From positions 2,297 to 66,296 of the forward strand of contig CAZLVG010000001.1 in assembly GCA_964562905.1 (NCBI GenBank): a DNA stretch of 64,000 nt. The letters run 5' to 3'. The notes beneath the pieces are model-generated. The model made no database searches, was not told the DNA's origin, and saw only the letters and a list, made by a program, of their open reading frames with translations. The stretch's first letter is position 1. Each line of letters opens with the position of its first letter. Made by a program: the position numbers and the translations under genes. The DNA is from an uncultured Candidatus Saccharibacteria bacterium. Its GTDB lineage: Bacteria; Patescibacteriota; Andersenbacteria; UBA10190. This document shows, piece by piece, positions 3,945 to 62,506 of this stretch.

Positions 3945-4031
3945 GCCGCGGTGACGGAATTGGCAGACGTGATGGCCTCAAAAGCCATTGGGAGCAATCC
4001 CGTGAGAGTTCGAGTCTCTCCCGCGGCACCA
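3945..4031 (+). tRNA. tRNA-Leu(CAA), class II with long variable arm, CCA encoded
   Basis: Acceptor stem GCCGCGG/CCGCGGC. Anticodon stem-loop ATGGC-CTCAAAA-GCCAT gives anticodon CAA. There is a long variable arm and a T-arm GAGAG-TTCGAGT-CTCTC. The 3' end is ACCA. Confidence 0.9.
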
Positions 4032-19245: not shown

Positions 19246-19254
19246 GCCGACTGC

Positions 19255-21636: not shown

Positions 21637-21637
21637 C

Positions 21638-45588: not shown

Positions 45589-45914
45589 TCAGGATTTTTT
45601 CTAAAAACGCGGTCATACGAGGCATAATCACGAGTGAGGTGCCTAGTCCTTTTCAACCTCTGCTCATCAATAGACCGCAGCATTTCTGTATTGATAAGCG
45701 GCGCGCCTTCCTTCACGGTCGCCGGCGGACCGGGATCACGCCGCAGTCTGGTCCACGCATAATTATATACCAGCCAAAGACCTATCCCGGCAAACATGAC
45801 GGCTAACAAATATCTGAAGCGCGAGTCCGCTAATACCAACCACAGGGACGCCCCGGCGTTTTTCACGCGTCCGTACCAGCCGCGTAGCCAGTCTTTATTT
45901 CTAACGTTGTTCAT
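45585..45914 (-). CDS. Hypothetical small membrane protein
   Basis: One TM segment (FRYLLAVMFAGIGLWLVY). It is translationally coupled to neighbours. Confidence 0.4.
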   Translation of the reverse strand: MNNVRNKDWLRGWYGRVKNAGASLWLVLADSRFRYLLAVMFAGIGLWLVYNYAWTRLRRDPGPPATVKEGAPLINTEMLRSIDEQRLKRTRHLTRDYASYDRVFRKNPE

Positions 45915-46470
45915 TTTTCTGTAGATAAAAAACTATTGACATATCCAGATTAAAGTTCTGGCCCTCGCCAGGCCTAATAAGTAAAGAGTCTATTTGCACC
46001 AACCCTTGTATATGCTCCATGGCCTCCAAGTACCGCAGCAGCATGGACGGTCGGGCCGAGGCTGACACTGAGATAGTGAGAGGGAAGATGGGTACACTGT
46101 GGCCTTCTTGATCCTTAAGGTCATGACCTTCCCTGATATTGACCACGTCAATTTCCAGGCCGGTACGTTGCGCCACGCTTTCCACGCGCTCCAGCACCTG
46201 AATAGTGTCCCTATCTTGGGGAACTACCACCGCTAGCCGTTCCAGGGAGCCTTTTTCCCTCTTTATACCCTCTGCCAGCTTTTCCGCGCGTTCTTTCACG
46301 TCCGCCGCCTGCTTAATCTGGGAACGGCTTCTTTGTACCATGGTGGCCATGGCGGCCGCCTTTCTCCACAAGTACGGCTGGACCGCCATCAGGCCGGCCG
46401 CCACCAGGACAGTGACAACCAACACCCGCAGACGCTTCCTTACCCGGGGGCGCAAGTTATTGATCCACAT
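45901..46470 (-). CDS. pilO: PilO-like type IV pilus assembly protein (set 2)
   Basis: N-terminal TM then periplasmic coiled-coil and ferredoxin-like domain. Position after pilM-pilN. Confidence 0.55.
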   Translation of the reverse strand: MWINNLRPRVRKRLRVLVVTVLVAAGLMAVQPYLWRKAAAMATMVQRSRSQIKQAADVKERAEKLAEGIKREKGSLERLAVVVPQDRDTIQVLERVESVAQRTGLEIDVVNIREGHDLKDQEGHSVPIFPLTISVSASARPSMLLRYLEAMEHIQGLVQIDSLLIRPGEGQNFNLDMSIVFYLQKNEQR

Positions 46471-47110
46471 AGTCCTCCTTAAGCGTTAAAGTAAATTCAT
46501 AGGGCGCGTTGACAGGATTCAACAGGTTAGCGCGAGGAGCTTTCACGTCTTTTACCCAGGGCAGCTCGCCAAGCCGTTCTTCAAAAACCACCAGCGAACT
46601 GCGCGCCACAGAGGAACCGGAGAAATAAATGGTATTGCTCTCGCGGTCGGCTTCTAATCTCCCAATGATTATGCCGGACGGAACAATATCCAGCAAGTCG
46701 GGAATAATATCGGACCAAACCAGTCTTTCCCGCCCCAGGGAATCTATAACTTCCAACAAGCTGTTATACCTTTTTACCTCACTTTTCTTTCTGTCGTAAG
46801 CGGCGACCTGCCGCCCCAGTTCAGACTCCGCCGTTCTGTTGGACGTTAAGTTGGCAAAACCCCACAAGCCGACACTGACCGCCGCCGCCAACAACGCCAG
46901 GGACAAGAGTCCGACTGCCACCGCGCGCGCAAAACGAGTCACAGCGTTCAGCGTAACTTCCTGGCGCAAGCTCCAACGCCTAGCGGGAGGCAGCAGGTTC
47001 ATCTGTTTTTGCGCCATAGCGTCAAGGTTAGTCCCCCAAGTTTTCGTCTCTAAGAGCCAGGCCGATGGCCGTAGTAAAATGCATGGCGTCAGCCGTGGAG
47101 ATGTTGGCAC
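46457..47110 (-). CDS. pilN: PilN-like type IV pilus assembly protein (set 2)
   Basis: Short cytoplasmic N-terminus (NLLPPARR motif region), one TM, periplasmic domain. Overlaps pilM and pilO. Confidence 0.6.
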   Translation of the reverse strand: MPTSPRLTPCILLRPSAWLLETKTWGTNLDAMAQKQMNLLPPARRWSLRQEVTLNAVTRFARAVAVGLLSLALLAAAVSVGLWGFANLTSNRTAESELGRQVAAYDRKKSEVKRYNSLLEVIDSLGRERLVWSDIIPDLLDIVPSGIIIGRLEADRESNTIYFSGSSVARSSLVVFEERLGELPWVKDVKAPRANLLNPVNAPYEFTLTLKEDYVDQ

Positions 47111-48140
47111 CTCCCGTCGTTACTTTCCCTCCCACGTTAGTCCAGGGACTGCCTAGCTGTACAGGAACTCCGGAAAAAATCTTTCCGAACTCCCCGGTCA
47201 TGCCGCTTAAATTAGATCCGCCGCCGGCCAGCAGTATAGCTCTTACCCTTTCCTCGGGCGGCAGTTGCACCACCATCTCCTTAACCACCCGCTCCACCTG
47301 CCGTATCAGCTCCAGCACTCCTTCTTTCAAAACTTCCCTAAGTTGCGTGCCCTCTTTCCCGGCTGGCCCCGCGGCTGACTTTTTCTCGGCCGCTTCGGAC
47401 AAGGATAGGCCGAGCCTGGCGGCCAGCCGCCGCGTAAGGTCGTCGCCCCCCGTCTGAATGCTGGCCGTATACCGCATGGCACCACGGTCAAAAAACACCA
47501 CGTTAGTCGAGGTAGCGCCCAGATCAATAACCAGCACACCCCGTATGTCCGCCGCTTCCTCTCTTGACCGAGGCAGCAGGCAGCGTACCACCGACCTGGC
47601 TTCTAGCTCCAGCGCCATGACATTCAAACCCAAGCCGTCCAGCACAGCCAACAAAGGATCAACAACTTCGCGCTGAGCCACGCCTACCAGTACCTGGTGG
47701 TAGCGGCCTTCCCGCGACGAGTCCACCGGTTCCCAGTCAAGATAAACCTTGTCTAGGTCAAAAGGGATGTGGCGCCTGATCGCCCAACGTACAGCCTCAT
47801 CAGCTTCCCGTTCTTTCATAGTAGGCAAATCAATAACCCGCAGAAAAGATTGCATCTCTGGTATGGAAGCTACCGCGTATTTTTCTTTCACCGGTAAAGG
47901 GGAACAACGGGTCATAGCTTGGCCGAGTGCTTTAGTAACGGCTGGTATGTCTTGCACTATTCCTCTTCGCATAAGACGGGGAGCCAGCGGCGACCAGCAC
48001 ACCGTGCGCAATAGCGGATAATCCCCGCCCGTCACCTCGGCCACCTTTATGGACTTGTCAGAGATGTCTATACCAATCATAGAATTCCGTCGGGAACCGA
48101 CATGCCTGACGACAGCTCGGCATCCCACTGCTCTATCCAT
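47028..48140 (-). CDS. pilM: PilM type IV pilus assembly ATPase-like protein (set 2)
   Basis: Actin-like fold motifs IGIDISDKSIKVAEV and LVIDLGATSTNVVFF. Length 370 aa. Confidence 0.85.
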   Translation of the reverse strand: MDRAVGCRAVVRHVGSRRNSMIGIDISDKSIKVAEVTGGDYPLLRTVCWSPLAPRLMRRGIVQDIPAVTKALGQAMTRCSPLPVKEKYAVASIPEMQSFLRVIDLPTMKEREADEAVRWAIRRHIPFDLDKVYLDWEPVDSSREGRYHQVLVGVAQREVVDPLLAVLDGLGLNVMALELEARSVVRCLLPRSREEAADIRGVLVIDLGATSTNVVFFDRGAMRYTASIQTGGDDLTRRLAARLGLSLSEAAEKKSAAGPAGKEGTQLREVLKEGVLELIRQVERVVKEMVVQLPPEERVRAILLAGGGSNLSGMTGEFGKIFSGVPVQLGSPWTNVGGKVTTGGANISTADAMHFTTAIGLALRDENLGD

Positions 48141-48418
48141 AACTCCAAGCGATCAATCAAGTCCGTGGACAGGTCCAAAGTATTCGCCGGCTGCTCGACT
48201 GTCCCGGGCGGCTCCAGATACAACAAGGTTAAAACCAGATACAGCCCCAGCAGTAATACCAAAACGGCGGCCATAATGTCTAGAGCGTGGCTGTGGCCGG
48301 TCAACACCCAGCGCCCAACCGAACGAAACTTGTTCTTGAGCTTGTGGGTTAAGCGCAACCAGTTCTCTTTATCCGTGAGTAGTTTTACGTCAATCTTCAT
48401 AACCACTTTCTTGACCAT
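48077..48418 (-). CDS. Hypothetical small membrane protein (low confidence)
   Basis: 113-aa ORF with one TM (IMAAVLVLLLGLYLVLTLLYL), lying between the two pilMNO sets and overlapping the pilM start by about 60 nt. Confidence 0.3.
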   Translation of the reverse strand: MVKKVVMKIDVKLLTDKENWLRLTHKLKNKFRSVGRWVLTGHSHALDIMAAVLVLLLGLYLVLTLLYLEPPGTVEQPANTLDLSTDLIDRLELWIEQWDAELSSGMSVPDGIL

Positions 48419-49070
48419 CGCCCTCTTCGGCCAATATGGATATCACCGCTTGCGCGCTAAGATGCCCTGTTTTTTGCGGCTGCTGGCTGTCTTTTTCGGA
48501 CGAGCCGGGCGGTCCGCCGGGCGGCGCCGGCAGTCCCGCTCCGAGTGGCCTTTTGACCGACTCTCTCACTGTAAACTGCCAGTCAGCCACCTGTACCAAG
48601 TACGGCTGGTACTCCAGATAATGGAGCCAGCGCAGCGTATTTTCAGGGTCGCCGGCAGCGACAAGATGCATCCTAACTTCTCGCAAAGGCCCTGATGGTT
48701 TTATTATGTTGCCTTTTTCATCTTTCTTTATCTCTTCTTCCACATCCGGTATGGTCAGTCTGACATTGAAATCAGCAGCAGATTTTTCCAGTCTCCCTAT
48801 CACACTGCTCAAGTCGTCCCGACGAGGCACGAAGGCCAAAATACGGTTGATATCGTGCCGGCGGTCAGCCAGCTTCTCCTCCAGCTCCGTCAGGCGGCTG
48901 GCGCTGGCCAGGCTTTGCTCCAGCGCCGACCGGAGGCTGGCCGCGGCGCGCCGCTTATCTTGAATAAAGGAATGCAGTCCCAGCACCACTCCCAGTAGCG
49001 CCAGGATCAGTACGGCCTCAACTACTCTCCATATTATCAGCTGCTTGATTGTCCGCTTGGCCAGCAACAT
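48390..49070 (-). CDS. pilO: PilO-like protein (set 1)
   Basis: TM then coiled-coil (LTELEEKLADRRHDINR). Position after pilN. Confidence 0.6.
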   Translation of the reverse strand: MLLAKRTIKQLIIWRVVEAVLILALLGVVLGLHSFIQDKRRAAASLRSALEQSLASASRLTELEEKLADRRHDINRILAFVPRRDDLSSVIGRLEKSAADFNVRLTIPDVEEEIKKDEKGNIIKPSGPLREVRMHLVAAGDPENTLRWLHYLEYQPYLVQVADWQFTVRESVKRPLGAGLPAPPGGPPGSSEKDSQQPQKTGHLSAQAVISILAEEGDGQESGYED

Positions 49071-49076
49071 ATTCTC

Positions 49077-49604
49077 CTACCTTCTGTGTAATTTAAAGGA
49101 AAAAGTGGGCTCCGGCTCCAGGGCAAAATTACGCAGCGGCGCTTCCACTTGCCGCACCCAGTCTAGCCCTTTCAGCTTTTGCTGGTATTCTACCACCGCC
49201 TGGCGTTCGGAAGCGGTTCCGTTAATAACCAGTACTGAAGGTTCTTCTTCGTGAACCTCTAAGCCGGTCAGGCGCAAAGCCGGCGGCATAATCTCTAACG
49301 CGTCCTCCACACTGTCCGACCAGGGCTGGTAACTTACACGTCGCTGCTCAAACTCGCGCAGTAACCGGTTAACTTCCTCCACCTCCCTGACCACCTCGGA
49401 GTGAAAACCATCTCCTTCCGTTTTGCTGCCAGCCATCCCTTCTTCGATCTGCTGAAAAACCACAAAGATAGCCGCCAGTGCTCCTACCAGCAGCAGCAAC
49501 AGCAGGTAGATCCTGTTTAAAAAGCGTCCCAAGCGGCACAAGTATAAACGCCTGGTGCGCTTTCTCAGAAGAGGTTTAGGCAGGAGGTTTATTTCTTTAC
49601 TCAT
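49077..49604 (-). CDS. pilN: PilN-like protein (set 1)
   Basis: N-terminus EINLLPKPLLRKR (PilN N-terminal PilM-binding motif), one TM, periplasmic domain. Confidence 0.7.
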   Translation of the reverse strand: MSKEINLLPKPLLRKRTRRLYLCRLGRFLNRIYLLLLLLVGALAAIFVVFQQIEEGMAGSKTEGDGFHSEVVREVEEVNRLLREFEQRRVSYQPWSDSVEDALEIMPPALRLTGLEVHEEEPSVLVINGTASERQAVVEYQQKLKGLDWVRQVEAPLRNFALEPEPTFSFKLHRR

Positions 49605-49629
49605 ACGTTACCGCCGCAACTGCTCCTAC

Positions 49630-50655
49630 TTATTCTACCTGCCTAAGAGACAGGCCTAAGGCAGTGGAAAAGTGCACTGACTCTCGTAATGACAAGGGTA
49701 TCTTCTTCTTAGCCGATTTTAAAGGCAAGATATTGACCCAGGGATTGCCGCGCTGCACATGGACGTTATCAAAAAAGCGCAGAAAAACCCGATCTAGTCC
49801 AGGAAAGTTAGCGCCGCCGCCGGTTAACAATATCTCTCTGACCTCGTGCTGCTCGTCAATACTGTTATAAAACTCCACAATGCCCAATATCTCCATAACC
49901 AACCCTTCCTGCGCCGCTCGCATTCTCTCTGCCATCAAGGCTGCCTCTTCCTCCGGCAGCTCCTCTTCCCTAGGAAAAGACAACTCTTTAGCCTCGCGGG
50001 CAGGCAACGCTTTGAGGAGGTCCTGTCCCCCCCGCTGCAAACTAGCCGTAAACCGAATAGTCCCGTGGTCATGAATCACCACGTTGGTAGCTGTCCCCCC
50101 CAAATCAACCAGTAACAGGCCCTGATGAGCTTTAAGCTCTCGCGAAACCAAAGCCCGCACAATGGCCTGACTTTCCAGCTCCAGCGCCGCCACGTCCAGC
50201 TGTAACTCATACAGAACCTCTAACAGCGGATCTACCACCTTTTTCTGAGCTGCTCCCACCAACACCTCCTGCTTACCTTCAACCACTTTATGCCCCGACT
50301 TAACAGGCTGCCAGTCAACATATACGTTCTCCAGTCCAAAGGGAATATGCCGCGCCACTTCCCACGGCACTGCTTCTTCTATCTCCTCCGGGTCCATAAT
50401 GGGCAACTGCGTCACCCGCAAAAATGACTGCGTTTCCGGCACGGAAACCGTTACCGGATCGTCCCACGACAACAGCCGGCAATATTTCCTAGCCCGGGAC
50501 AGTGTCTTTTTTAAAATGGAAGGTTGTTGTATTACGCCCCGCTCAATAACTCCGTTAGGGATTGGTTGCCAGCAGTGGGCCAGCAGCCGACGTGGAGAAC
50601 TTTCCGACAGCTGAACCACCTTCACGGAACGGTCCGATATGTCTAGGCCTATCAT
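49630..50655 (-). CDS. pilM: PilM (set 1)
   Basis: Motifs MIGLDISDRSVKVVQL and LLVDLGGTATNVVIHDHG. Length 341 aa. Confidence 0.85.
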   Translation of the reverse strand: MIGLDISDRSVKVVQLSESSPRRLLAHCWQPIPNGVIERGVIQQPSILKKTLSRARKYCRLLSWDDPVTVSVPETQSFLRVTQLPIMDPEEIEEAVPWEVARHIPFGLENVYVDWQPVKSGHKVVEGKQEVLVGAAQKKVVDPLLEVLYELQLDVAALELESQAIVRALVSRELKAHQGLLLVDLGGTATNVVIHDHGTIRFTASLQRGGQDLLKALPAREAKELSFPREEELPEEEAALMAERMRAAQEGLVMEILGIVEFYNSIDEQHEVREILLTGGGANFPGLDRVFLRFFDNVHVQRGNPWVNILPLKSAKKKIPLSLRESVHFSTALGLSLRQVE

Positions 50656-52064
50656 TGCACCTCCTCCCAGGAAATAAACTTATACTGCCCGGTGGTGGGG
50701 AAATAAGGCGGGGGTAAGTATAGCATGTTGGGATCGTACTCGGAGACCCCTTCCTGGTAGCCGCTGACTACCGTGCCGTCAGAGTCAACCCAACTGGTGA
50801 CGGGCACCAAGTTACTGGCTATCATGCCGTAGCGGGTGATCCTGGTTTTCAGTCGGTGCTCTCCATAATAATAGTACCGGCGGCCGAACCTCCCTTTCTG
50901 GGCTATATAAGCACCGTCCAGCTGCAGGTAATCGGGAGCGGCGGAATAAGGAATGAGCACGTGGCGCTGGGCTATAGCTCCCAGCGCGCGCGAGCCGTCC
51001 TTCACCCCGCCATAGCTGATGTCACCATTAACAATAATGTCCACGTTAGTGCCGGGCGCGTCGGGAAATCTGCCCGCGGCCACCGTAACGCGGTCCCTTA
51101 CTTCTCCTTCCATCCACAGCGTATCTTCCACATATATCACGCCCCCGGACGGCACCAACTGTGTTCCCAAAAAGGTTTCCTGGCCGATATCGTGCGAAGT
51201 CCATTGCCAGCCCGTCTCCGGAAACCACGACCATATGTTTGACCCTTTACTGTTCACTTCGTACATGGAGTAAGTGTTGTCCGCGTTAAAAACCAGATGG
51301 TAGCCATAATTACCTGAAGTACCGTAATAAGTGCCGGCCTGCTGCGCCAGGTCTTTCATGTCCAGCAGGTCCAGCGTCAACGAAGCGTAATCCACCACCG
51401 GCACCGGAAATTCCCATAAATCCCGCATCTCCCCGCTTCCCCACACCCCCGGCTTCTCTTCGTAGTCGCACCCGTGATGCGGCTGGCAAATGTAAGTTTC
51501 TTTAGCGCTGGCCATTAGGCTCTCCGAATAACCGTCCATCCTTATCCCTCCGTTAGCGTGTACCGGACCGTTTATCTCGCCGCCGTACCACACGTCACTG
51601 TTGGTTATAGACGAGTACCGCGCCAGCGACTCTTTGCCATACCGTGCCTTTAGGGTAACTTCCCGGCTTGGCTGGCTGGACGTGGTGCCTACTGACTGGA
51701 TCATAACCACGTCACTCCCGGACAGTGACTGAAACGTAACCTCAAAGGAGCCCAGCACCCCCGCGTATTGATCTTCCACTTCCCGTGTTTCGGAGGAAAA
51801 ATCTTCCGTGCTGTGCGCCAGCCGCCAGCGGCCGTAGTTGAGACCGGCTTCCGCGATCTGAAAAGCCAGCTCGTCGCCGGACTGCAGTACGGCCTCGTGG
51901 TAAGTGCGGCTGACTAAGCCCGCCAGGCCCGTAAAAATGACCACGAACATAACTACGAATACCAGTGTCATTATCAGCACGCCGCCTCGCTGGCGGCTAA
52001 CGCCGCCGGAAGCTCCTGCGCCAAAGCAATCCCTCAAGAAGGACATGAATATATAATAACACAC
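50652..52064 (-). CDS. PilX-N-like minor pilin / pilus-associated protein
   Basis: N-terminus QRGGVLIMTLVFVVMFVVIFTGLAGL followed by AFQIAEAGLNYGRW (PilX_N-like). The C-terminal domain is large and beta-rich. Confidence 0.6.
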   Translation of the reverse strand: MCYYIFMSFLRDCFGAGASGGVSRQRGGVLIMTLVFVVMFVVIFTGLAGLVSRTYHEAVLQSGDELAFQIAEAGLNYGRWRLAHSTEDFSSETREVEDQYAGVLGSFEVTFQSLSGSDVVMIQSVGTTSSQPSREVTLKARYGKESLARYSSITNSDVWYGGEINGPVHANGGIRMDGYSESLMASAKETYICQPHHGCDYEEKPGVWGSGEMRDLWEFPVPVVDYASLTLDLLDMKDLAQQAGTYYGTSGNYGYHLVFNADNTYSMYEVNSKGSNIWSWFPETGWQWTSHDIGQETFLGTQLVPSGGVIYVEDTLWMEGEVRDRVTVAAGRFPDAPGTNVDIIVNGDISYGGVKDGSRALGAIAQRHVLIPYSAAPDYLQLDGAYIAQKGRFGRRYYYYGEHRLKTRITRYGMIASNLVPVTSWVDSDGTVVSGYQEGVSEYDPNMLYLPPPYFPTTGQYKFISWEEVQ

Positions 52065-52086
52065 CGCGGTTATTCAAAAACCGCGG

Positions 52087-53547
52087 TTACCGCCACGTGG
52101 AAAACCAGAACAGTTTTTCGTACAAATCATGCGGTAAAAAGAAGCCGTACGTTAAGGGACTGAACACTAAAAACATAGCCGCCGCCGCTCCCAGCAGTAC
52201 ATAATAATAGGGGGGCTGCTTCATCAAGCTCCCTTTTCTGAAAAACCCGGTTCCGTCCAACCAGAGCAGACCCGCCAGTAAAGCGAACAAAAGAGGCGTA
52301 AGGTAATGATAAAGAAACAGCGCCCGCGGTACGCGCGCCAAAGGTACATAAGAGATAATATAACCGGCCAGCGGAATGAAAACGGCTTTATTATAGCCGT
52401 CAGAACCTAACCTTTTCAGAGATTCCAATTTATAAGCCGCGAAAAAATCTCTTATTTGTTTACTCCGCCTGTACAGGAATGAATAACACATGCCAAGCAG
52501 TGAAATAATCAACAGAGCGCCTATGCTCCACCAGACAACCAGATTACCCAGAAAATAAATGGAGGCTACGCGGCCTTCACCGCCGCTTTGCGTCCAGTAA
52601 AAAACGGGGGTGCCGACATACGGCCAACTCCACCAGCGACTGGCATCCGGATGGGTAGCTTCAAGGTTGTAGTTAGCGTCAAACATGATCCGATGTAATT
52701 CTATCGTTTCTTTGACAAAAGTTACGGGCAGCCAACCTTCGTCCCACTGCGGTACCCGCCAGGCATCTCCCGGTCCGGACTGTGTGAGCAAAGCAAAATG
52801 CAGCGCCCAGCCTGCCCCGTAGACAGTCAGGCCGCTGGCCGCGATTAGCAGAGCAACTGCCAGATAACGAGCTAACATCTTGTAAGATGAGACATTAAGC
52901 ACGCGCCAGGCCAGTATTACCGCCAGCACACCCGCGGCCACCAAGCCGGTAAACTTCGCGCCTACGGCCAGTCCGGCCAAGGCTCCTGCCGCGCACGCGC
53001 GCCACGCCCATCTCTGCCAGTGAAAAGGACTTTTCCTGAATGATTTTTCCATCCCCAAGTAGGCGCTTAGACAACCAAAAACAGCTACCAGCAGCACGCC
53101 GTCCAGGGATATTACGCGATTTTGCACGGTCAGAGCGTTATCAAATATAACCATCATGCTCCCTAAAAAAGCTGCCGCCTGTCCGGCTCCCAACTGTCTT
53201 AACAATATAAAAATCACGAGCGGCAGCAACATTCCCATAAGCGCCGGTACGGCCCGCAGTCCGATAGGAGACACAGCACCGTACCTCTGCCCTATATTGG
53301 AAAACGACAAGTCTCCCTCATAACCAGCCAGTTTAGCGGCGCCCGCCACCAGCAGCTTGGCGTGGGGCGGATGGATATCAAAAAATCTCTCTCCCGTACA
53401 GCAGTAGGCCGTAACGAACTTTCCAAAATGAACCTCGTCAAAAACCACTTGCCGCGGATAGCTTAGCCACATAAATTGAGTGGCCGCGGCCAGCGCGAGG
53501 ATAACCAACAATAATTTGAACCGCTGCGACATAAGTACAGATATCAC
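52087..53547 (-). CDS. Protein O-mannosyltransferase family (GT39/PMT) GT-C glycosyltransferase
   Basis: Strong PMT signature VFDEVHFGKFVTAYCCTGERFFDIHPPHAKLL (loop-1 DE motif). About 11 TM helices. Confidence 0.8.
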   Translation of the reverse strand: MISVLMSQRFKLLLVILALAAATQFMWLSYPRQVVFDEVHFGKFVTAYCCTGERFFDIHPPHAKLLVAGAAKLAGYEGDLSFSNIGQRYGAVSPIGLRAVPALMGMLLPLVIFILLRQLGAGQAAAFLGSMMVIFDNALTVQNRVISLDGVLLVAVFGCLSAYLGMEKSFRKSPFHWQRWAWRACAAGALAGLAVGAKFTGLVAAGVLAVILAWRVLNVSSYKMLARYLAVALLIAASGLTVYGAGWALHFALLTQSGPGDAWRVPQWDEGWLPVTFVKETIELHRIMFDANYNLEATHPDASRWWSWPYVGTPVFYWTQSGGEGRVASIYFLGNLVVWWSIGALLIISLLGMCYSFLYRRSKQIRDFFAAYKLESLKRLGSDGYNKAVFIPLAGYIISYVPLARVPRALFLYHYLTPLLFALLAGLLWLDGTGFFRKGSLMKQPPYYYVLLGAAAAMFLVFSPLTYGFFLPHDLYEKLFWFSTWR

Positions 53548-53655
53548 ATTATGCCATGCCGCTCTTCAAAATAAACGGGTGGCGCGGGGTGGAGGGTGCA
53601 GGGCCGTGCCAGGGCCCGTTATAAGTATAGCGGCATGGCATAATGTTACCTCTGT
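53539..53655. mobile_element. MITE-like repeat, copy 3 (complete, both TIRs)
   Basis: The perfect TIR tcacattatgccatgccgct ... agcggcatggcataatgt is embedded in longer imperfect terminal similarity (agatatcacattatgcc... / ...ggcataatgttacctctgt). The element is near-identical to the reverse complement of the 60541-60656 copy. Confidence 0.75.
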
Positions 53656-53821
53656 AGATGTTTATTTTATGCGACAGTATTATTTTCCTCCACTGTCGTC
53701 AACGGCCATGTCTGTGCTCTGCGCTAATTAATCTAACTACGTCAAGCGCTAGCCGCTGGCTGTCCGGGCTAGACCGTCGGTACCGGCTGGCAACCGCCGC
53801 CGTAACGACCGCCGGCTGAAA

Positions 53822-55639: not shown

Positions 55640-55650
55640 ATGCGGCTCGG

Positions 55651-56325
55651 TTATGGAAAGGCCGGAGCGGCCGGCGGCAGCGGAGGAGCGCTGCCGGCCG
55701 CGGTATCTCTTAACCGTCCCCGCCGCGGCGTGACCTGGGTTTTGATAACCGCCGCCGGCGGGTCCTGGTCCTCGTCGGCATCAACTAAAAAGGTAATCTC
55801 TACCCGATCAACCGCCTTTAAGTCGTAGGCGGGATCCACTGCCTGCGCGCCGGCCCCGCCCAGCGAATAATAAACCAACAGCGGCTTGGCTTGCGCCGCG
55901 TTCCTGAAGCCGCGGGCCAGCACCTGCGGCGACTCGGTCCCCGTGCCTCCCATTTCCGTCACTCGGCGCATAAGTTTATCGCCGTCCACCCAGTACTGCA
56001 CCATCTCCGGCTCACTGTCGTCGTCGGCGTTGGTGTATATCACTATCTCTCCCGGGCCGGCGCGCCTTAACCACCTTTCCGCCTCACCGCTGAATTGGCC
56101 GTCATCGTCAAAATCCACGTTGCCGGCGTTGCGGATAGCGTCGCTCATCCTGTCCATTTCCGCCTTGGCCTCTTCCACTATCCTGCCCTGCTCTATCTGA
56201 AAGCGCGAGATACCCGCCACCCTCACCGCCAGCGCGAACAAGGCCGTCAACACCAGCGCGCCCGCCGCCGCCACCAGCAATACCTCAATAAAGGTCAGGC
56301 CTCTTTTGTCATTCTCAATCATCAT
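55651..56325 (-). CDS. Type IV pilin-like protein (prepilin N-terminal cleavage/methylation domain)
   Basis: Class III signal KRGLTFIEVLLVAAAGALVL (G|LTFIE). Confidence 0.8.
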   Translation of the reverse strand: MMIENDKRGLTFIEVLLVAAAGALVLTALFALAVRVAGISRFQIEQGRIVEEAKAEMDRMSDAIRNAGNVDFDDDGQFSGEAERWLRRAGPGEIVIYTNADDDSEPEMVQYWVDGDKLMRRVTEMGGTGTESPQVLARGFRNAAQAKPLLVYYSLGGAGAQAVDPAYDLKAVDRVEITFLVDADEDQDPPAAVIKTQVTPRRGRLRDTAAGSAPPLPPAAPAFP

Positions 56326-57172
56326 CCAGAATTCTCACCTGGCGCGTGCTAACGGTCAGGTTAGCGTTAACGGGATCGCTAAGCACGGCCTGGAAGCTTT
56401 CATTCCCCTCCGGCTCGGTATCAGCCACGATATCCACCATAATCATCTTTGACGTCTGGCCGGGATCAAAGACCACCGTCTCCGTTTTGGACACATAATC
56501 CTGGCCGGCCGTCGCCGAATCGGGCTGGGTGGCAAAATCAACCGTCACCCGCAGGGGATACTCATGGGACAGAACCACGGTCAGCGGAGCCTGATTATCG
56601 TCGGGCGGGTCGCCTTCATTAACGCTTAACGGCGAAGACGGATCAAATTTAACGTTCGGCAACGAGGTGGTCAGGCCCAGCGCCCCGCATTCCACGTCCA
56701 GTTCATGATCCCAGGACCTGACATAATACCGCGTTCCGCCTACCGCCCCGGTCATGTCCGCGGCTTCGGCCGTAATAAGCTGGCATCTTCGCTCCACCGT
56801 CAAATCATGGCCCAGCGAGGACACCTTAAGCGGAACCCCCGCTCCGCCAGGCTGAAACGACAGCTCGGCAGCGCCGATAATATTACCGCTACTGTCTGAC
56901 ACCGCCCGCACCAGCGAACCTTCACTTATCAGGCCGGTCGGCGCGTAGGTCCCGCTATTTAAAAGAAACAAAGTGTACTCTACTCCCGCTTCCGCTATGT
57001 GAAAGGCTTGTTCTTCCTGCTCCTGGTCGACTACCTGGTGCGACTGCCTGACCGCGAAGTTCAGCCAGGCCGTTACCACCACCAGCAATATCACCAAGAA
57101 CATCAACGTTATGGTCATCACCGCTCCCCGCTGGCCGCGCCGCGCTCGGGCCCGTCTTCCGTAGTCCAGCAT
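56315..57172 (-). CDS. PilX-N-like pilin with Calx-beta domain
   Basis: N-terminus QRGAVMTITLMFLVILLVV...AFHIAEAGVEY and C-terminal Calx-beta-like motif VDFATQPDSATAGQDYVSKTETVVFDPGQTSKMIMVDIVADTEPEGNESFQ. Confidence 0.6.
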   Translation of the reverse strand: MLDYGRRARARRGQRGAVMTITLMFLVILLVVVTAWLNFAVRQSHQVVDQEQEEQAFHIAEAGVEYTLFLLNSGTYAPTGLISEGSLVRAVSDSSGNIIGAAELSFQPGGAGVPLKVSSLGHDLTVERRCQLITAEAADMTGAVGGTRYYVRSWDHELDVECGALGLTTSLPNVKFDPSSPLSVNEGDPPDDNQAPLTVVLSHEYPLRVTVDFATQPDSATAGQDYVSKTETVVFDPGQTSKMIMVDIVADTEPEGNESFQAVLSDPVNANLTVSTRQVRILDDD

Positions 57173-57177
57173 AGTGT

Positions 57178-57798
57178 TTACTCCTCTATTACCTCTCCTA
57201 AATTAGTTTTTAGGTTGCGCAGCTGCACCTGCGACATTACTTCCACCGGATCCGGTTCCTGATTAGGATCAACATCTATAATAAGGCGAAATTGCAGGTA
57301 TTTTACCTCCGTTACGTCCGAAGACGATAAAGGCTCGCTGTCGGCCGGGTAATCGCCGGAATAATAAATAAAAATGGGCGTAGCCCCGTTGCGCACGGCG
57401 CCCACCGCCGTGGATACCTCTTCCGTATTTTCATCATAAACTAGAGGATCTCCCCCTGGTACGATCACCCCTCGCTTAAGGTCAGTCCCCTCCAGCTCGT
57501 AACGTATTCTTTCAGTAAGTCCGTCCTGGTCCACGTCGGAATAAAAAACTATCTTTTGCGGCTGTGCCGCGGCCAGCGGATAAGCGCCCGTGTCGGACAC
57601 GCGCAGCTCCCTCAACGACTTAGACAGCCGCTTTAAATGTACCCTGGCCGACTCCGTGGAACTGGCTTGCATAAACACTAAACGCGACAGAGGATATCCC
57701 GCGGCCATTAAGCGCAACAGCGCTACCAGAATAACAGAGCTGAAAAAAGCCACCAGTATCACTTCAATAAACGTGACTCCTGGTGATGGCCGGCTCAT
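57178..57798 (-). CDS. Type IV pilin-like protein
   Basis: Class III signal SPGVTFIEVILVAFFSSVILVALL. Confidence 0.8.
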   Translation of the reverse strand: MSRPSPGVTFIEVILVAFFSSVILVALLRLMAAGYPLSRLVFMQASSTESARVHLKRLSKSLRELRVSDTGAYPLAAAQPQKIVFYSDVDQDGLTERIRYELEGTDLKRGVIVPGGDPLVYDENTEEVSTAVGAVRNGATPIFIYYSGDYPADSEPLSSSDVTEVKYLQFRLIIDVDPNQEPDPVEVMSQVQLRNLKTNLGEVIEE

Positions 57799-59309
57799 TG
57801 CTGCAAGGTCATTTCAATCCTGGCTCGGGTGCTTCCTTCCGACACCGTGACTGTCTGCTGGCCTTCTTCAAACCCGGGCGCGCTCACCGTCAGCTCGTAA
57901 TCTCCCCCCGACGGCAAATCGCTGAACAGCACCTGTCCCACCGCGCCCGTGCCCAGTTCCTCGTCAATGCCCTGGCCTACCAGCCGGACGGTGGCGTTGT
58001 CCACCGGCTGCCCCTCGGGATCAACCACCGTCACGTGCAGCGAATAAGGGGTGTAGGGCACCAACGTTACCGTCATGTCCAGGTTGTCACCAGGATTGAC
58101 GTTCAAAGGCAGCACGAAGCTGGTCTCTTTTATATCGTAACCCGTCGCCGCCCCTGGGATGGTAAAGTCATACTGATCCCACACTAAGTCATCATAACCG
58201 GCCTGTCCCGCGTCGTCCGTGCTGCCGTCATGGTCCAGTACGTACACGTTATCTCCCTCGCCGTCCACCCCTATGGTTTTAGTGCCCCGCAAATTGTAGT
58301 CCAGGCTGACCGGCGTTCCGTCTTCTTCCCGCGTTGTTATAGAAAGGCCGGCCAGGCTATCTATGGCAAAGGTTTTACTGGTTACCTCGCCAATTATGAT
58401 GGACAGGTGGGCGTGGTCCGCGTCGGGCACGAAATCGACCGTGGTATCGTAAGTCTGCTCGGACGTGTAGCCGGGCGTGCTTACCGCCAGCTCATAACTG
58501 TCAGAACTTTCCGGCAGTCCCGGCAGCACCAGCCTGCCCTCGCTGTTGGTCTGGGTGTTTATATCAATGGGCGGGTCCACCGTCTCGTTCACTAGCCGCA
58601 CATCGGCTCCTTCTACCCCCTCGGCGGCGGCGTTCAAAGCCTGGAAATCCAAGGTGCCGCCCTCTTCTCCTCCCTCCATGCCCGGCGGCGCCACGTAGGT
58701 TACCAGCAAGACCGATCCTGTCTTGTTAGGCTGCTGCCAGGTAACTTCCACCCGGACCTGTTTGTAATCGGCGTTATACTCGTCTCCGGGCGGCGTGCCT
58801 TCACCGCCCTCACCGCACGCTCCCGTCACGTCACCGTGCGCCAGGTGAGCGTCCAGCGCCGAATCGGGCACCTGCAGCGTTCTCTCCGATGACGTGCCCG
58901 GCTTGTGGCAAATAGTTACCGTCTCTTCTCCCTCGCTGCTGCCGGCCGCTTGTCCGTCAAAGTAGTCGTCCACGTACCTGATGTCGGTATACACCGTGTA
59001 AGTTACGCCGCCGCGCTCCACCTGCTCTTCTTGTGGTATGCTGCCGCTGGGCACCCCGCCTTCCGTTCCCACCTCCGCGTAGGGAAGATTGCGCACCATC
59101 TCCATTCTCTCATTAGCCAGCGCCACCGCCATTATCCGTCGCTCTCCTTCCTGTACCGTGCGCAGATTAAGCACGAACAGTCCAAATATGCCCGTCAGGG
59201 TGGTACCAATAATAAAAGCGGCGATGAGCAATTCAATCAGCGTGAATCCCCTATCATTTGGCAGCTTGATAAAATAGCTTATTAACTTTGATAGCGGTTT
59301 AAATGACAT
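57795..59309 (-). CDS. Large pilin-like protein with CarboxypepD_reg-like domains
   Basis: Prepilin signal DRGFTLIELLIAAFIIGTTL. The 450-aa C-terminal region contains CarboxypepD_reg-like repeats (ATVRLVGQGIDEELGTGAVGQVLFSDLPSGGDYELTVSAPGFE). Confidence 0.75.
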   Translation of the reverse strand: MSFKPLSKLISYFIKLPNDRGFTLIELLIAAFIIGTTLTGIFGLFVLNLRTVQEGERRIMAVALANERMEMVRNLPYAEVGTEGGVPSGSIPQEEQVERGGVTYTVYTDIRYVDDYFDGQAAGSSEGEETVTICHKPGTSSERTLQVPDSALDAHLAHGDVTGACGEGGEGTPPGDEYNADYKQVRVEVTWQQPNKTGSVLLVTYVAPPGMEGGEEGGTLDFQALNAAAEGVEGADVRLVNETVDPPIDINTQTNSEGRLVLPGLPESSDSYELAVSTPGYTSEQTYDTTVDFVPDADHAHLSIIIGEVTSKTFAIDSLAGLSITTREEDGTPVSLDYNLRGTKTIGVDGEGDNVYVLDHDGSTDDAGQAGYDDLVWDQYDFTIPGAATGYDIKETSFVLPLNVNPGDNLDMTVTLVPYTPYSLHVTVVDPEGQPVDNATVRLVGQGIDEELGTGAVGQVLFSDLPSGGDYELTVSAPGFEEGQQTVTVSEGSTRARIEMTLQQ

Positions 59310-60516
59310 TGACCAGGTTGTAGATGGGTGAAATAACGGATACCGCCAGCGCTCCCACCGCCAGACCTATGAGCACCATCAGAATGGGCTCCATAATGGA
59401 AGTCAGGTTCTTCATGGTCTGGTCAACTTCACCTTCATAAAACTGCGCCGTCTCTTTCAATACTTGGTCCAACGCGCCCGTCTCTTCTCCTACCCTTATT
59501 ATATTAACGACAATCGGAGGAAACAGACGGCCGAAACCTTCCAGAAATTCACTTAATTCCTTGCCTCCCTTTACGTGCTCGCGCGCCTGCGCCAGCACGC
59601 GCGCGTAGCTAGGGTGGGGAGTGTTGGATCCCAGAATATCCAGAGCCTTAATGTAAGACACGCCGCTGGACAGCAGCGCGCCCAAGTTACGAGAAAAACG
59701 GGCTAAGTTTATCTCTTGCATGATAGGGCCAATCACCGGCGTATAGAGCAGCCCGTGCATGACAGCGGCCTTAACAGACTGCAGACGCAAAAGACCCCAG
59801 GCCGCGGCCACCAGAACAAACGCGCCTACGAAGAAAAGCAGCCAGTGAGCTTGAAAAGCGTCGCTGATGGCTATCAATATCCTGGTGGGCAGCGGCAGCT
59901 CCACGTCAAAACCTTCAAAGACCTCCACCAGCTTGGGCACCACGAAGAACATCATGGCCACCCCTACGGCAATAAGGGACAAAATAATCACTATGGGATA
60001 CATAAGGCCTCCCTTGACCGCCCGGCCCAGCTCATATTCTTTATGCAGCTGCTCCGCCAATACTTCTAAAGATTCTTGCAGCCGGCCGGTCGTCTCCCCT
60101 ACTCGCACAAAACTGACAAACAGCGGCGGAAACACATTAGGGAAAACCGACATCCCCTCGGCCAGCGTTTTGCCGCGGTCTATGTCACTGTGTAATGACT
60201 TCAAAGCCGTTCTCATGGCCCTACTACGGGTTTGCTCCTGTAAGGTCACCAGCGATCTTTTGACATCCAAGCCAGAACGCAACATGAGCGCGAAGTAGCG
60301 GGCGAACAGCGCGCGCTCCAGGGAGGATGCCCGGTTAAATAAGCCGGAAAAAACAGCCGCTCCCGGCAGCCGCTGTGCCTTTCTGCTGTAACTTGTCAGC
60401 AGTATACCCTCGCCTAACAGGTTCTGTCCCAAAACGGAGTGGTCGGGCGCCTCGCGCATCCCCCGCACTATCTCACCCGTCTTCTCCCGCCGTCCTTCAA
60501 AGGAATATATAGGCAT
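59299..60516 (-). CDS. pilC: Type IV pilus inner-membrane platform protein PilC (GspF family)
   Basis: Two GspF repeats, each with 3 TM. Motifs LEQ.G...AL..M.YP..I. Confidence 0.9.
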   Translation of the reverse strand: MPIYSFEGRREKTGEIVRGMREAPDHSVLGQNLLGEGILLTSYSRKAQRLPGAAVFSGLFNRASSLERALFARYFALMLRSGLDVKRSLVTLQEQTRSRAMRTALKSLHSDIDRGKTLAEGMSVFPNVFPPLFVSFVRVGETTGRLQESLEVLAEQLHKEYELGRAVKGGLMYPIVIILSLIAVGVAMMFFVVPKLVEVFEGFDVELPLPTRILIAISDAFQAHWLLFFVGAFVLVAAAWGLLRLQSVKAAVMHGLLYTPVIGPIMQEINLARFSRNLGALLSSGVSYIKALDILGSNTPHPSYARVLAQAREHVKGGKELSEFLEGFGRLFPPIVVNIIRVGEETGALDQVLKETAQFYEGEVDQTMKNLTSIMEPILMVLIGLAVGALAVSVISPIYNLVNVI

Positions 60517-60540
60517 CCCGGCAACAATTAATGCTAATAT

Positions 60541-60656
60541 ACAGAGGTAACATTATGCCATGCCACTATACTTGTGACGGGCTCTGGCGCGGCCCATGCA
60601 CCCCCGCGCCGCGCCACCCGTTTATTTAAAGAGTGGCATGGCATAATGTGATATCT
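60541..60656. mobile_element. MITE-like repeat, copy 4 (complete, both TIRs; inverted relative to copy 3)
   Basis: acagaggtaacattatgccatgcc...ggcatggcataatgtgatatct. It is about 90% identical to the reverse complement of copy 3, including the GC-rich core and the aaataaacgggtggcgc box. Confidence 0.75.
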
Positions 60657-60722
60657 ATAACTCACAGGTTTAAGTATAAATAATTATCCCTCCACCGACC
60701 AACCTCACCTCGCCCACACTAG

Positions 60723-60752
60723 CTACGAATTACGAGTTACGAATTACTGATT
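60723..60752. repeat. Dispersed heptad motif copy ACGAATTACGAGTTACGAATTACTG
   Basis: Near-identical to the reverse complement of 3574-3610, including the flanking attactgat. It lies immediately downstream of the pilB stop. Confidence 0.7.
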
Positions 60753-60760
60753 ACAAAACC

Positions 60761-62506
60761 TCATTCCCTGGCTACGCGCAACACTTCTTCTAAGCTGGTT
60801 ACTCCGCTGGCCACTTTCATAAAACCGTCCTCCACCATGCTTACCATGTTCTGTCCTTTGCGCGCCGCCTCTTCCAGCTGTCCAGAAGTAGTCTGCGGCT
60901 TTATTATCTGCTGCATTTCGGACGTTATTTCCATAACCTCGTAAATACCGATTCGCCCCTTGTAGCCGTCGTGACACCGCTGGCAGCCGCCCGCTTCGCC
61001 CGTCTTATAAAGCGGCATCTCCGTCCAGTCGGCATTGCTTTCAACTACTCCTTCCTTTCGTAAAACATTCAATACGCTGTCCATGTCAAACTCGTCCTGC
61101 AAATCTTTAACCAAAGCCGGCGTGAACTTCGACCGCCGCCGGCACTTGTCGCACAACCGTCTCACCAGGCGCTGGGCCAGAACTAGGTTTAAGGTGGAAG
61201 CCAGCAGAAAAGCTTCCACTTTCATGTCCCGCAACCGCGGCAAAGCGCCGGCCGCGCTGTTAGTGTGCAGCGTAGACAGCACTAGGTGCCCCGTCAGCGC
61301 CGCGTTAACGGCCAGCGAAGCCGTCTCCTCGTCCCGGATCTCACCTACCATAATAATGTCCGGGTCCTGCCGTACCAGCGACCGCAGGCCGTTGGCAAAC
61401 GTAAGCCCGATGCGGGAACGCACCTGGGTCTGATTAATGCGGGGCATACGGTATTCTATCGGGTCTTCAATAGTGCTGATGTTCACTTCCGAAGTGTTTA
61501 CCTCCTTCATAACCGCGTACAGCGTGGTGGTTTTGCCGGAACCGGTAGGACCTGTGACCAGTATCATACCGTGCGGGTGGTGAATGGCCTGGCGCAGTAC
61601 CTTTAACTGTTTTTTGTTTATTCCCAGGTCATCCAATCCCAGCCCCTGCCCTGATTCGTCCAACAGGCGCATTACTATTTTTTCACCGTCATAGACCGGC
61701 AGGGTGGACACGCGGAAGGCCACTTTGTAATTGTCGGACTCTATTTTAAAACGGCCGTCCTGCGGCAAACGGTGTTCATCAATTTTCAAATTAGCCAGCA
61801 CCTTCACCCTGGCCACCAGGCCGGGCAACACCGTCTTAGGCAGTATCAGCATATCCCGCAGAATCCCGTCTATACGGTAGCGAACGATAACTTTCTTCTC
61901 GGCGGGCTCTATGTGAATATCCGAGGCGCCTTCCAGAATGGCGTGCTTCAAAATTGCCTGGGCGATACGTATAACCGGCAGGTCGTCAGCCGATTCAACT
62001 TGCTCCCCCTGCTCCACTACATTTTTAAGTTCTTCGCCGACTACGTCTGAAAGCTCCGCCTTCAAGCTCTCTTGGTATTGGTTCAGCACGTTCTGTATGG
62101 AGGCAACGCTGGCCTGAGCCACCTCCACGGGCATGTCCACCTTTTTGCGCAAGAACTCCACCATTTGCCGATCGCTGGGGCTGGCCATGGCCACCCGCAG
62201 CCCTTTATCCGTCTGCTCGTAAGCTATGATCATGTGGCCGCGCGCCGTGGATTCAGGAAGAACGTTAAGCACTTCCCGCGGAACTCTCTTATCTCTCAAA
62301 TCAACGTAAGGCACCTGCGCCGCCTCCGCCTGAACTTTGGCCAAGTCTTCGCCGTCCACCAGGCCGCTGTCCACTAAAGCAGCCTGCCAGCCGGCACCGG
62401 CCTCCAGCTGCCGCTTTATCTCCTCCAGCTCTACCTCTTTCTTGAACAAATCTCTGCTAGCCAGCGTTTGCAGGATATTACCAATGGCGACAGTATCCTC
62501 TACCAT
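60761..62506 (-). CDS. pilB: Type IV pilus assembly ATPase PilB (GspE family)
   Basis: Walker A motif LVTGPTGSGKTTTLYA, Asp/His boxes, and tetracysteine CDKC...CQRC. An N-terminal GSPII_E_N domain is present. Confidence 0.95.
   Translation of the reverse strand: MVEDTVAIGNILQTLASRDLFKKEVELEEIKRQLEAGAGWQAALVDSGLVDGEDLAKVQAEAAQVPYVDLRDKRVPREVLNVLPESTARGHMIIAYEQTDKGLRVAMASPSDRQMVEFLRKKVDMPVEVAQASVASIQNVLNQYQESLKAELSDVVGEELKNVVEQGEQVESADDLPVIRIAQAILKHAILEGASDIHIEPAEKKVIVRYRIDGILRDMLILPKTVLPGLVARVKVLANLKIDEHRLPQDGRFKIESDNYKVAFRVSTLPVYDGEKIVMRLLDESGQGLGLDDLGINKKQLKVLRQAIHHPHGMILVTGPTGSGKTTTLYAVMKEVNTSEVNISTIEDPIEYRMPRINQTQVRSRIGLTFANGLRSLVRQDPDIIMVGEIRDEETASLAVNAALTGHLVLSTLHTNSAAGALPRLRDMKVEAFLLASTLNLVLAQRLVRRLCDKCRRRSKFTPALVKDLQDEFDMDSVLNVLRKEGVVESNADWTEMPLYKTGEAGGCQRCHDGYKGRIGIYEVMEITSEMQQIIKPQTTSGQLEEAARKGQNMVSMVEDGFMKVASGVTSLEEVLRVARE

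Follow-up and report, generated by a model that had tools for sequence, protein, structure and literature searches.

Type IV pili without the secretin PilQ are a known and widespread trait of bacteria of the candidate phyla radiation (CPR; PMC6744442), as are enlarged PilX-type pilins proposed to act as adhesins, and Saccharibacteria were reported to use two pili with different roles in one cell (PMC12206443). Thermus builds two pili from one machine (PMC7203116), and Myxococcus holds alternative minor-pilin sets (PMC7541494). Here, we analysed a stretch of 64,000 nucleotides (the window; positions 2,297 to 66,296 of contig CAZLVG010000001.1, assembly GCA_964562905.1, deposited as an uncultured Candidatus Saccharibacteria bacterium) in which the main cluster of type IV pilus genes of a Candidatus Andersenbacteria genome (CPR/Patescibacteria) is located. 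Behind a single motor, i.e. the extension ATPase PilB and the platform protein PilC, this cluster encodes two paralogous modules of seven genes, each consisting of a trio of minor pilins and a set of the alignment genes pilM, pilN and pilO followed by a small fourth gene, here called X. We propose with moderate confidence that the one PilB/PilC motor works with both modules, each trio being served by its own PilMNOX set, resulting in two kinds of pilus.

The cluster spans positions 45585-62506 of the window and lies on the minus strand throughout with small gaps or overlapping reading frames, within a minus-strand gene run covering 43.6-62.5 kb. With the pilins named by their length in amino acids (aa), the order is pilB-pilC-504-206-285-224-605-PMT-470-pilM1N1O1X1-pilM2N2O2X2, so that in the direction of transcription pilB and pilC precede six pilin-like genes interleaved with a gene of the PMT glycosyltransferase family, and the two pilMNOX sets follow in tandem. 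A first-pass annotation made from the letters alone had recognised a type IV pilus locus on one strand of a CPR bacterium at 45901-62506. Both the Pfam matches of pilB and pilC and the named homologues, which are Candidatus Andersenbacteria, bear this out, and the upper boundary holds, while the lower boundary lies at 45585 and the 486-aa PMT gene, the 470-aa gene, X1 and X2 had been missed. The motor genes are pilB (60761-62506, 581 aa; T2SSE, E 7e-135, and MshEN, E 2e-14) and pilC (59299-60516, 405 aa; two T2SSF repeats, E 8e-56), each being the sole copy in the window; PilB shares 57-67% identity with its orthologues in related loci, and pilC overlaps the 504-aa pilin gene by 11 nucleotides. 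Our Pfam scan covered most open reading frames (ORFs) of at least 120 aa, a few such as 16229-17794 being left out, and among these larger frames no secretin, PilT, PilD or short major pilin and no second pilB or pilC was found. The previously noted absence of pilQ thus stands for the scanned frames; as a general CPR trait (PMC6744442) it is not specific to this locus.

Hundreds of PilM1 homologues with 54-70% identity exist, and the few carrying a source name are Candidatus Andersenbacteria, as are the named homologues of the 470-aa protein. A scan with one genome per species returned 31 loci, most of them labelled Andersenbacteria or generically ("bacterium", "uncultured Candidatus Saccharibacteria"). 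Loci built in the same way were found in more than 20 independent metagenome-assembled genomes (MAGs) from different studies, showing that the pilus locus is not a chance feature. This also refutes the tandem pilMNO sets being a product of misassembly or of a chimeric metagenome bin. The window does come from a metagenome-assembled contig, and matches of 100% identity to PilM1 and the 470-aa protein lie on a 74.9-kb contig; yet the copies are only 23-42% identical and the two PilM clades have matching tree shapes, leaving an assembly artefact with next to no probability.

The modular organisation becomes apparent from seven pairs of paralogues. In the machinery, PilM1 and PilM2 are 42% identical (E 4e-83), PilN1 and PilN2 28%, PilO1 and PilO2 23%, with their families matching at 98.9% probability in a profile comparison with hhalign, and X1 and X2 28% (E 0.002). 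Of the pilins, the 206-aa and 224-aa proteins are 29% identical over their full length (E 8e-21), the 504-aa and 605-aa proteins 36% over the N-terminal 100 residues (E 3e-14), and the 470-aa and 285-aa proteins 33% over the N-terminal 90 residues (E 2e-11). These three pilin pairs and four machinery pairs define module A (504 aa, 206 aa, 470 aa and M1N1O1X1) and module B (605 aa, 224 aa, 285 aa and M2N2O2X2), which share one pilB, one pilC and one PMT gene. The two complete pilM-pilN-pilO sets claimed before are thus confirmed by two PilM_2 matches, each followed by a PilN-like and a PilO-like gene with weak Pfam matches, and the identity of the PilM copies, guessed by eye as 35-40%, was close to the measured value. 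A recent, near-identical tandem duplicate, which would carry little functional meaning, is rejected by these identities and by the separate PilM clades.

A neighbour-joining tree resolved PilM1 and PilM2 as two clean clades with largely matching topology. Compared with the nearest PilM proteins among 1.84 billion cluster representatives, both form sister clades set apart from all others, scoring 216-430 bits within the group and at most 211 bits outside. As the M1 and M2 clades are mutually closest in this collection, we rejected the possibility that set 2 had been acquired horizontally from some distant lineage. The nearest PilM outside Andersenbacteria, 36% and 30% identical to M1 and M2, respectively, is encoded in an outgroup locus (L038, 2-3798; also L039) with a single set in the order 470-like gene (33% identity, E 1e-53), pilM, pilN, pilO and a 103-aa X-like gene. 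The duplication was thus preceded by both the ComZ-like pilin, as which we describe the 470-aa protein below, and the small fourth gene. On the evidence of this one locus, a pilMNOX unit preceded by a 470-like gene looks ancestral, module A resembling the single-set arrangement and module B looking like a diverged copy. Judged from the sequences, the duplication dates from the base of the Andersenbacteria-like clade sampled here or from an earlier time.

Both PilM copies exceed the curated PilM_2 cut-off and match PilM chains in the PDB. In set 1, pilM1 (49630-50655, 341 aa; PilM_2, E 6e-31; E 1e-17 to 1e-19 against 2ych, 3jc8 and 5eox) is followed by pilN1 (49077-49604, 175 aa; PilN, E 0.0045), the N-terminal INLLP motif of which is present in 24 of 32 PilN1 orthologues, the pilO1-like gene (48390-49070, 226 aa; PilO, E 0.0085) and X1 (48077-48418, 113 aa), encoding a small bitopic membrane protein at a position kept in relatives. 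Set 2 consists of pilM2 (47028-48140, ORF of 370 aa; PilM_2, E 8e-33), probably starting at 48080 to give 350 aa and an ATGA overlap with X1, pilN2 (46457-47110, ORF of 217 aa with an MNLLP motif; PilN, E 0.0022), probably starting at 47017 to give 186 aa, the pilO2-like gene (45901-46470, 189 aa; PilO, E 0.0071) and X2 (45585-45914, 109 aa), the likewise small and bitopic paralogue of X1, kept in 15 related loci. Permissive Pfam and NCBIfam scans yielded no family for X1 and X2, and no significant match to the PilO1 or PilO2 family was obtained when the PDB was searched by sequence and by profile. PilO1 ends in a proline/glycine-rich, acidic tail of about 50 residues (PLGAGLPAPPGGPPGSSEKD...EEGDGQESGYED), which is not present in PilO2. 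Both PilN families retain the PilM-binding NLLP motif, the flanking residues being set-specific, with LNLLPxERRxxL characterising the PilN2 orthologues. In some relatives, PilM2 and PilN2 are fused to a protein of about 540 aa with GspL-like architecture (P0246, P0248, P0251; 12331-13962 of locus L033), the C-terminal half of P0246 being 32% identical to PilN2 of the window (E 2e-30).

We mapped the proteins of the window onto 36 related loci, of which 31 are distinct. The usual order is pilB, pilC, a 504-like and a 206-like gene, a large, variable PilV-like gene, a PilX-like gene of about 150 aa, a 224-like gene often fused to a large C-terminal domain, PMT, a 470-like gene, pilMNOX1 and pilMNOX2, and each related locus covering that side has a single pilB and a single pilC. 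pilMNO2 and module B pilins are both present in 17 loci and both absent from four, and no locus has module B pilins without pilMNO2. Set 1 alone occurs in L021, L022 and L028 (also L030 and L031) and, separately, in L017, all nested inside the radiation of two-set loci, so that pilMNO2 was lost in two separate branches. Where these loci cover the region, they read pilB-pilC-504-206-PMT-470-pilMNO1 without module B pilins; in L017, the 206-like gene is separated from PMT by about 3 kb which do not encode pilins. As the module B pilins and pilMNO2 lie about 5 kb apart with module A genes in between, each joint loss needs two deletions. Conversely, L034 and L035 have set 2 alone, encoding 285-like and 224-like pilins, PMT and pilMNO2 but neither the 470-like gene nor pilMNO1, on contigs which break off shortly upstream. 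A cluster divided after PMT is found in the most closely related sequenced genome (GCA_043811915.1, PilM identity of 70%): one contig (L001) holds pilB through PMT at its end, then unrelated minus-strand genes including one for a Pel9A-like beta-helix protein, and another (L037) holds the 470-like gene and two pilMNOX sets.

A pairing of each trio with its own PilMNOX is supported, though not proven, by pilMNO2 being absent only where B-type pilins are absent, by the joint lack of the 470-like gene and pilMNO1 in L034 and L035, and by the set-specific flanks of the PilN motif together with the PilM2-PilN2 fusions. This is consistent with a model according to which each trio, in which a 206/224-type pilin is joined by one PilV/GspI-like pilin and one PilX/GspK-like pilin without Glu+5, would assemble into a priming complex like those of GspI/J/K and of type IV pilus minor pilins (PMC7541494, PMC7248040) and would end up at the pilus tip. 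A separate PilMNOX subcomplex in the membrane, attached to the common PilC/PilB motor, would serve each trio, so that the pili (or short pseudopili) made by the cell could have either of two tips. The first-pass annotation had suggested two fibres from one ATPase; the minor pilins being duplicated in three pairs and the B-type pilins missing in both independent pilMNO2 losses fit this suggestion, whereas the distinct fibres themselves we infer.

Both PilMNOX sets might instead co-assemble into one hetero-oligomeric platform ring, with the six pilins forming one composite tip of one pilus. All genes lie in one operon-like array with overlapping or closely spaced frames, only one pilB, one pilC and one PMT gene are present, and PilN and PilO are themselves old paralogues which form heterodimers in other systems (PMC13039148). 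We consider such a mixed machine rather unlikely, as the lineages running on set 1 alone or on set 2 alone argue for each set being sufficient, the fusions of PilM2 to PilN2 indicate pairing within a set, and the absence of pilMNO2 is confined to loci also lacking the B-type pilins. The modules could also be equivalent and interchangeable, kept for different conditions or for antigenic or host-range variation without a fixed pairing of set and trio. PilM1 and PilM2 do evolve at the same rate, each with a median identity of 54% to its own orthologues, and in Myxococcus one machine works with any of three minor-pilin/PilY1 sets (PMC7541494). We judge such a spare-part role unlikely, since both sets have been kept through the whole radiation at only 23-42% identity, which argues for distinct roles, since the flanks of the PilN motif are set-specific and since no locus has B-type pilins without pilMNO2.

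Several observations nevertheless weigh against two pili with separate PilMNOX sets. Two loci (L012 and L029) have an intact pilMNO2 without module B pilins in the locus, which also suits the spare-part reading, and in two others (L018 and L026) the usual position of the 470-aa gene is without it although pilMNO1 has been kept. Loss events are few and the loci related, so the counts of co-occurrence are not phylogenetically independent, and the PilM trees are neighbour-joining trees without bootstrap support. In mirror-tree and partial Mantel comparisons with 7-16 usable taxa, the 470-aa protein correlates slightly better with set 1, but the 224-aa pilin correlates equally with both sets, which also suits a mixed machine. 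The PilN and PilO matches (E 0.002-0.009) remain below the curated Pfam cut-offs, so that these identities rest on position, topology and motif. The window does not show a complete system, as the major pilin, the prepilin peptidase PilD and the retraction ATPase PilT may be encoded elsewhere in the genome, and the same may be true of a second pilB or pilC, a single motor being what is seen in the window and the related loci.

The pilins of module A are as conserved as the motor, with median identities of 50-61% at full coverage. When the window was scanned for the motif in all six frames, canonical Gly-1/Glu+5 signals turned up in three genes only, those for the 504-aa, 206-aa and 224-aa pilins, so that of the four prepilin-leader genes claimed before three have the full signal; the 285-aa, 470-aa and 605-aa proteins lack Glu+5, which for the first two of these can be read straight from the sequence. 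The 504-aa pilin (57795-59309; G↓FTLIE, the arrow marking the processing site) is a minor pilin with a PilV/GspI-like N-terminus and the only one with an N_methyl match above the Pfam cut-off (E 1.6e-6). It carries two CarboxypepD_reg beta-sandwich domains (E 3e-22), shows weak NCBIfam matches to PilV, GspI and ComGE, and is 50% identical (median) to its orthologues. The 206-aa minor pilin (57178-57798; G↓VTFIE), found by the motif scan, reaches 56%; searches of the PDB by sequence and profile gave nothing significant for either. Neither the 206-aa nor the 470-aa protein was assigned to a family in permissive Pfam and NCBIfam scans.

The 470-aa protein (50652-52064) has a PilX/GspK-type N-terminus and a median identity of 61% to its orthologues, equal to that of PilB and PilC. 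An AlphaFold model from an alignment of 42 sequences (mean predicted local distance difference test score, pLDDT, 89.6) begins with a long helix (residues 28-84), continues with a sheet of four strands and a large beta-solenoid, and closes with a last strand, i.e. a predicted GspK-like pilin fold with a large inserted beta-solenoid, which is the architecture of a ComZ-like tip pilin. ComZ of Thermus is a GspK-like pilin with an inserted solenoid which binds DNA and the neighbouring GspI-like pilin PilA2 and has been argued to cap the competence pilus (PMC6561018). One of the two tips proposed here would thus present a conserved beta-solenoid and might bind DNA like ComZ. Counting against such a function, the likeness to ComZ is structural only, with 12-14% sequence identity and a global template modelling score of 0.32; the modelled fold does not imply DNA binding and the resemblance is one of architecture. 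Module A could also form a short competence or secretion pseudopilus (ComG-like or type II secretion-like) for DNA uptake or protein export, with only module B building an extended adhesive pilus. This would suit the ComZ/GspK-like 470-aa protein, the GspI, PilV and ComGE matches of the 504-aa pilin, the dependence on DNA uptake suspected for CPR genomes (PMC6744442) and the Thermus comZ mutants, which retain pili and lose transformation (PMC6561018). The two bulky CarboxypepD_reg domains of the 504-aa pilin are, however, more typical of exposed surface proteins, Pfam scans revealed no ComEA or ComEC linked to the locus within the window, and the idea largely overlaps with our two-pilus proposal, differing in filament length only; we regard it as quite unlikely.

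The pilins of module B show median identities of only 29-34% at partial coverage, often over the N-terminal pilin head alone. They appear from sequence comparison to evolve fast and to swap their C-terminal domains, which in this genome are two Calx-beta domains and a module with 40 cysteines. The large modular minor pilins with adhesin-type domains described in the first-pass annotation are therefore present, including the two Calx-beta proteins. The 285-aa PilX/GspK-like pilin (56315-57172) ends in a Calx-beta domain (E 4.5e-16, 59.4 bits) which is missing from the 141-190-aa proteins of relatives. Its PilX_N match is sub-threshold (E 0.018, 15.5 bits against a curated cut-off of 25.5 bits), GspK and ComGG matches of the 285-aa and 470-aa proteins are weak (NCBIfam, E 0.06-0.09), and the GspK assignment is backed by a predicted fold for the 470-aa protein but not for the 285-aa protein. 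The 224-aa minor pilin (55651-56325; G↓LTFIE), identified by the motif scan and as a paralogue of the 206-aa pilin, corresponds in relatives to an N-terminal domain with fused C-terminal extensions, in proteins of up to 959 aa.

The PilV-like 605-aa pilin (53822-55639), whose N-terminus is paralogous to that of the 504-aa pilin, consists of a pilin head (residues 1 to about 145; G↓QSLVG), a cysteine-rich region (152-453), a Calx-beta domain (496-590; E 9e-12, 45.5 bits) and an (SP)7 tail, the latter shared by some of its homologues only. We counted 41 cysteines, 40 of them within residues 152-453 and often spaced as C-x5-C, where about 60 had been estimated by eye, and seven SP repeats instead of six. 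Only four close homologues (58-62% identity) were found among 5.8 billion proteins, one of them in the same MAG as locus L001 and with the gene order of the window. All 40 cysteines of the module are invariant across the four, indicating a rigid disulfide-bonded extracellular module, for which permissive Pfam and NCBIfam scans gave no family. Of the two features which the first-pass annotation proposed to follow by synteny, the pilMNO duplication is thus conserved in relatives and the cysteine-rich gene is not, the C-terminal domains at its position varying between relatives. Glu+5 is retained (G↓QS(V/L)(I/V)E) in two of the homologues and in the PilV-like relatives encoded at other loci. In the protein of the window (codon GGC) and the two other homologues, Gly stands in its place, showing that the loss is real and inherited; a sequencing error was rejected on the same grounds. 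An AlphaFold (AF2) model from five sequences was poor (pLDDT 50), being credible only in the pilin-like N-terminal secondary structure and in the Calx-beta domain. The two Calx-beta domains exceed the curated cut-off of 27 bits, are 33% identical to each other and both end in a DDD motif; they may bind Ca2+. The second of the proposed tips would be a variable adhesin making contact with a surface or a host, which may include the attachment to host cells suggested in the first-pass annotation. Around the 605-aa gene (54001-56000), the guanine-plus-cytosine content rises to 62.6% from about 55% elsewhere, coinciding with its richness in Cys, Gly, Pro and Ala; this could reflect amino-acid composition or a foreign origin of the module.

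Embedded between the pilin genes is a single-copy gene for a glycosyltransferase with GT-C fold of the PMT/GT39 family (52087-53547, 486 aa; PMT, E 3e-39, 135.5 bits; PMT_4TMC, E 1e-34, 120 bits), with the Asp-Glu motif of loop 1 readable in the translation as FDEVHFG. It is present in 25 related loci with a median identity of 45%, and pilin genes are always adjacent. Its NCBIfam equivalog score of 26.7 lies far below the cut-off of 800, making it a family member and not an orthologue of a characterised enzyme. The conserved PMT gene within the cluster and the Ser/Pro tails suggest O-glycosylation of pilins; the enzyme would probably act on Ser/Thr/Pro-rich stretches such as the (SP)7 tail. 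In Pseudomonas, the pilin glycosyltransferases TfpO and TfpW are likewise GT-C-fold membrane enzymes encoded beside pilin genes, TfpO being O-antigen-ligase-like and TfpW arabinosyltransferase-like, in contrast to the protein O-mannosyltransferase family found here. Elsewhere in the window (17836-22586), another GT-C glycosyltransferase, of 469 aa and belonging to the PMT_2 family, is encoded close to a DUF2079 membrane protein (544 aa) and a GT2 glycosyltransferase (230 aa); the GT2 protein could be the source of a polyprenol-phosphate sugar donor for the PMT enzymes. Promoter and terminator scans of the pilus region gave matches at chance level, with the exception of one hairpin (52063-52087, minus strand) with a perfect 9-bp stem (ACCGCGGTT...AACCGCGGT), which separates the stop codon of PMT from the start of the gene for the 470-aa protein and is overlapped by a promoter-like match.

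Downstream of X2, a cytidylyltransferase-like gene, a PrsW protease gene and a gene of 174 aa are syntenic in relatives and have no evident link to the pilus. At 41321-43645 (plus strand), the window encodes a UXS-type NAD-dependent epimerase/dehydratase of 774 aa, interrupted by an intein with a LAGLIDADG homing endonuclease (Intein_splicing, E 2e-21; LAGLIDADG_3, E 2e-13); its orthologues at the same position in related loci are intein-free (310-312 aa). Outside the pilus locus, two proteins are probably surface-exposed, i.e. one of 1115 aa with FG-GAP, PKD, fn3 and CarboxypepD_reg domains (9087-12434, minus strand) and a DUF11 protein of 660 aa (27687-29669, minus strand). The only RNA family matches in the window are a tmRNA gene (38459-38861, plus strand; Rfam, 97.5 bits) and a tRNA-Leu(CAA) gene (3945-4031, plus strand).

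Going beyond the two-pilus proposal, we tentatively suggest, as a speculation which we would not rate as probable, that in secretin-less bacteria PilM, PilN, PilO and X act as selectivity modules, each recognising and loading its own priming complex, allowing a genome-reduced episymbiont to run two pili from one PilB/PilC, one with a ComZ-like, possibly DNA-capturing tip and one with a fast-evolving adhesin tip. The joint losses in single lineages would then make the two-module locus of Andersenbacteria a natural experiment on this role. If each PilMNOX does serve its own tip complex, the PilMNO proteins would gain a concrete role in choosing the pilins that start a pilus in bacteria without secretin, and a tiny genome would have a cheap route to two pili by duplicating seven small genes and not the whole machine. 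The locus furthermore provides candidate molecules for the CPR lifestyle, a conserved ComZ-like tip possibly scavenging DNA and a hypervariable, disulfide-rich, probably glycosylated tip possibly recognising a host. The practical value is limited, as none of these bacteria is in culture and the functions proposed are inferred at every step. In the open-access literature searched, pilMNO genes duplicated in tandem have not been described for CPR bacteria, nor did we find an account of a tandem, co-varying duplication of alignment genes and priming pilins behind one motor with an embedded PMT gene and a ComZ-like pilin.

As a summary, single traits of this locus are shared with several described systems. 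Streptococcus sanguinis PilB (bioRxiv 10.1101/2021.01.27.428410) likewise combines a pilin head with a grafted C-terminal adhesion-type domain, a vWA module in that case, whereas the grafts found here are CarboxypepD_reg and Calx-beta domains and the cysteine-rich module known from four homologues without a family match. Alternative priming or tip sets of minor pilins with one motor are known from the minor-pilin/PilY1 clusters of Myxococcus xanthus (PMC7541494) and from Thermus (PMC7203116, PMC13039148), where one machine gives filaments of different function, as we propose here. These bacteria have one PilMNO set, whereas here the alignment proteins are duplicated alongside the priming pilins; compared with Myxococcus, no PilY1-type protein was detected (Pfam and NCBIfam) and no secretin in the window. 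The ComZ/PilA2 tip complex of Thermus thermophilus (PDB 6qvi; PMC6561018) shares with the 470-aa protein the GspK-like head with a large beta-solenoid resembling ice-binding proteins, the lack of a canonical prepilin signal and the clustering with a GspI/PilV-like pilin, but functions in a diderm host with PilQ and a single PilMNO set. With the dual type IV pili of Nanosynbacter lyticus TM7x (PMC12206443) and those of the CPR survey (PMC6744442), the locus shares monoderm-type, T4aP-like pilB, pilC, pilM, pilN and pilO without PilQ, many divergent minor pilins, predicted pilin O-glycosylation, and PilX-type pilins which have non-canonical signals and whose enlarged C-terminal domains have been proposed to be adhesins. 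That one tiny cell makes two pili of different function, as reported for TM7x, is proposed here as well. In TM7x, the two machineries are complete and encoded at separate loci, with a pilB and a pilC for each, whereas in Andersenbacteria only pilMNOX and the pilin trio occur twice, in tandem and behind one pilB and one pilC in the locus, with a PMT-family glycosyltransferase and a ComZ-like solenoid pilin as fixed parts of the locus.

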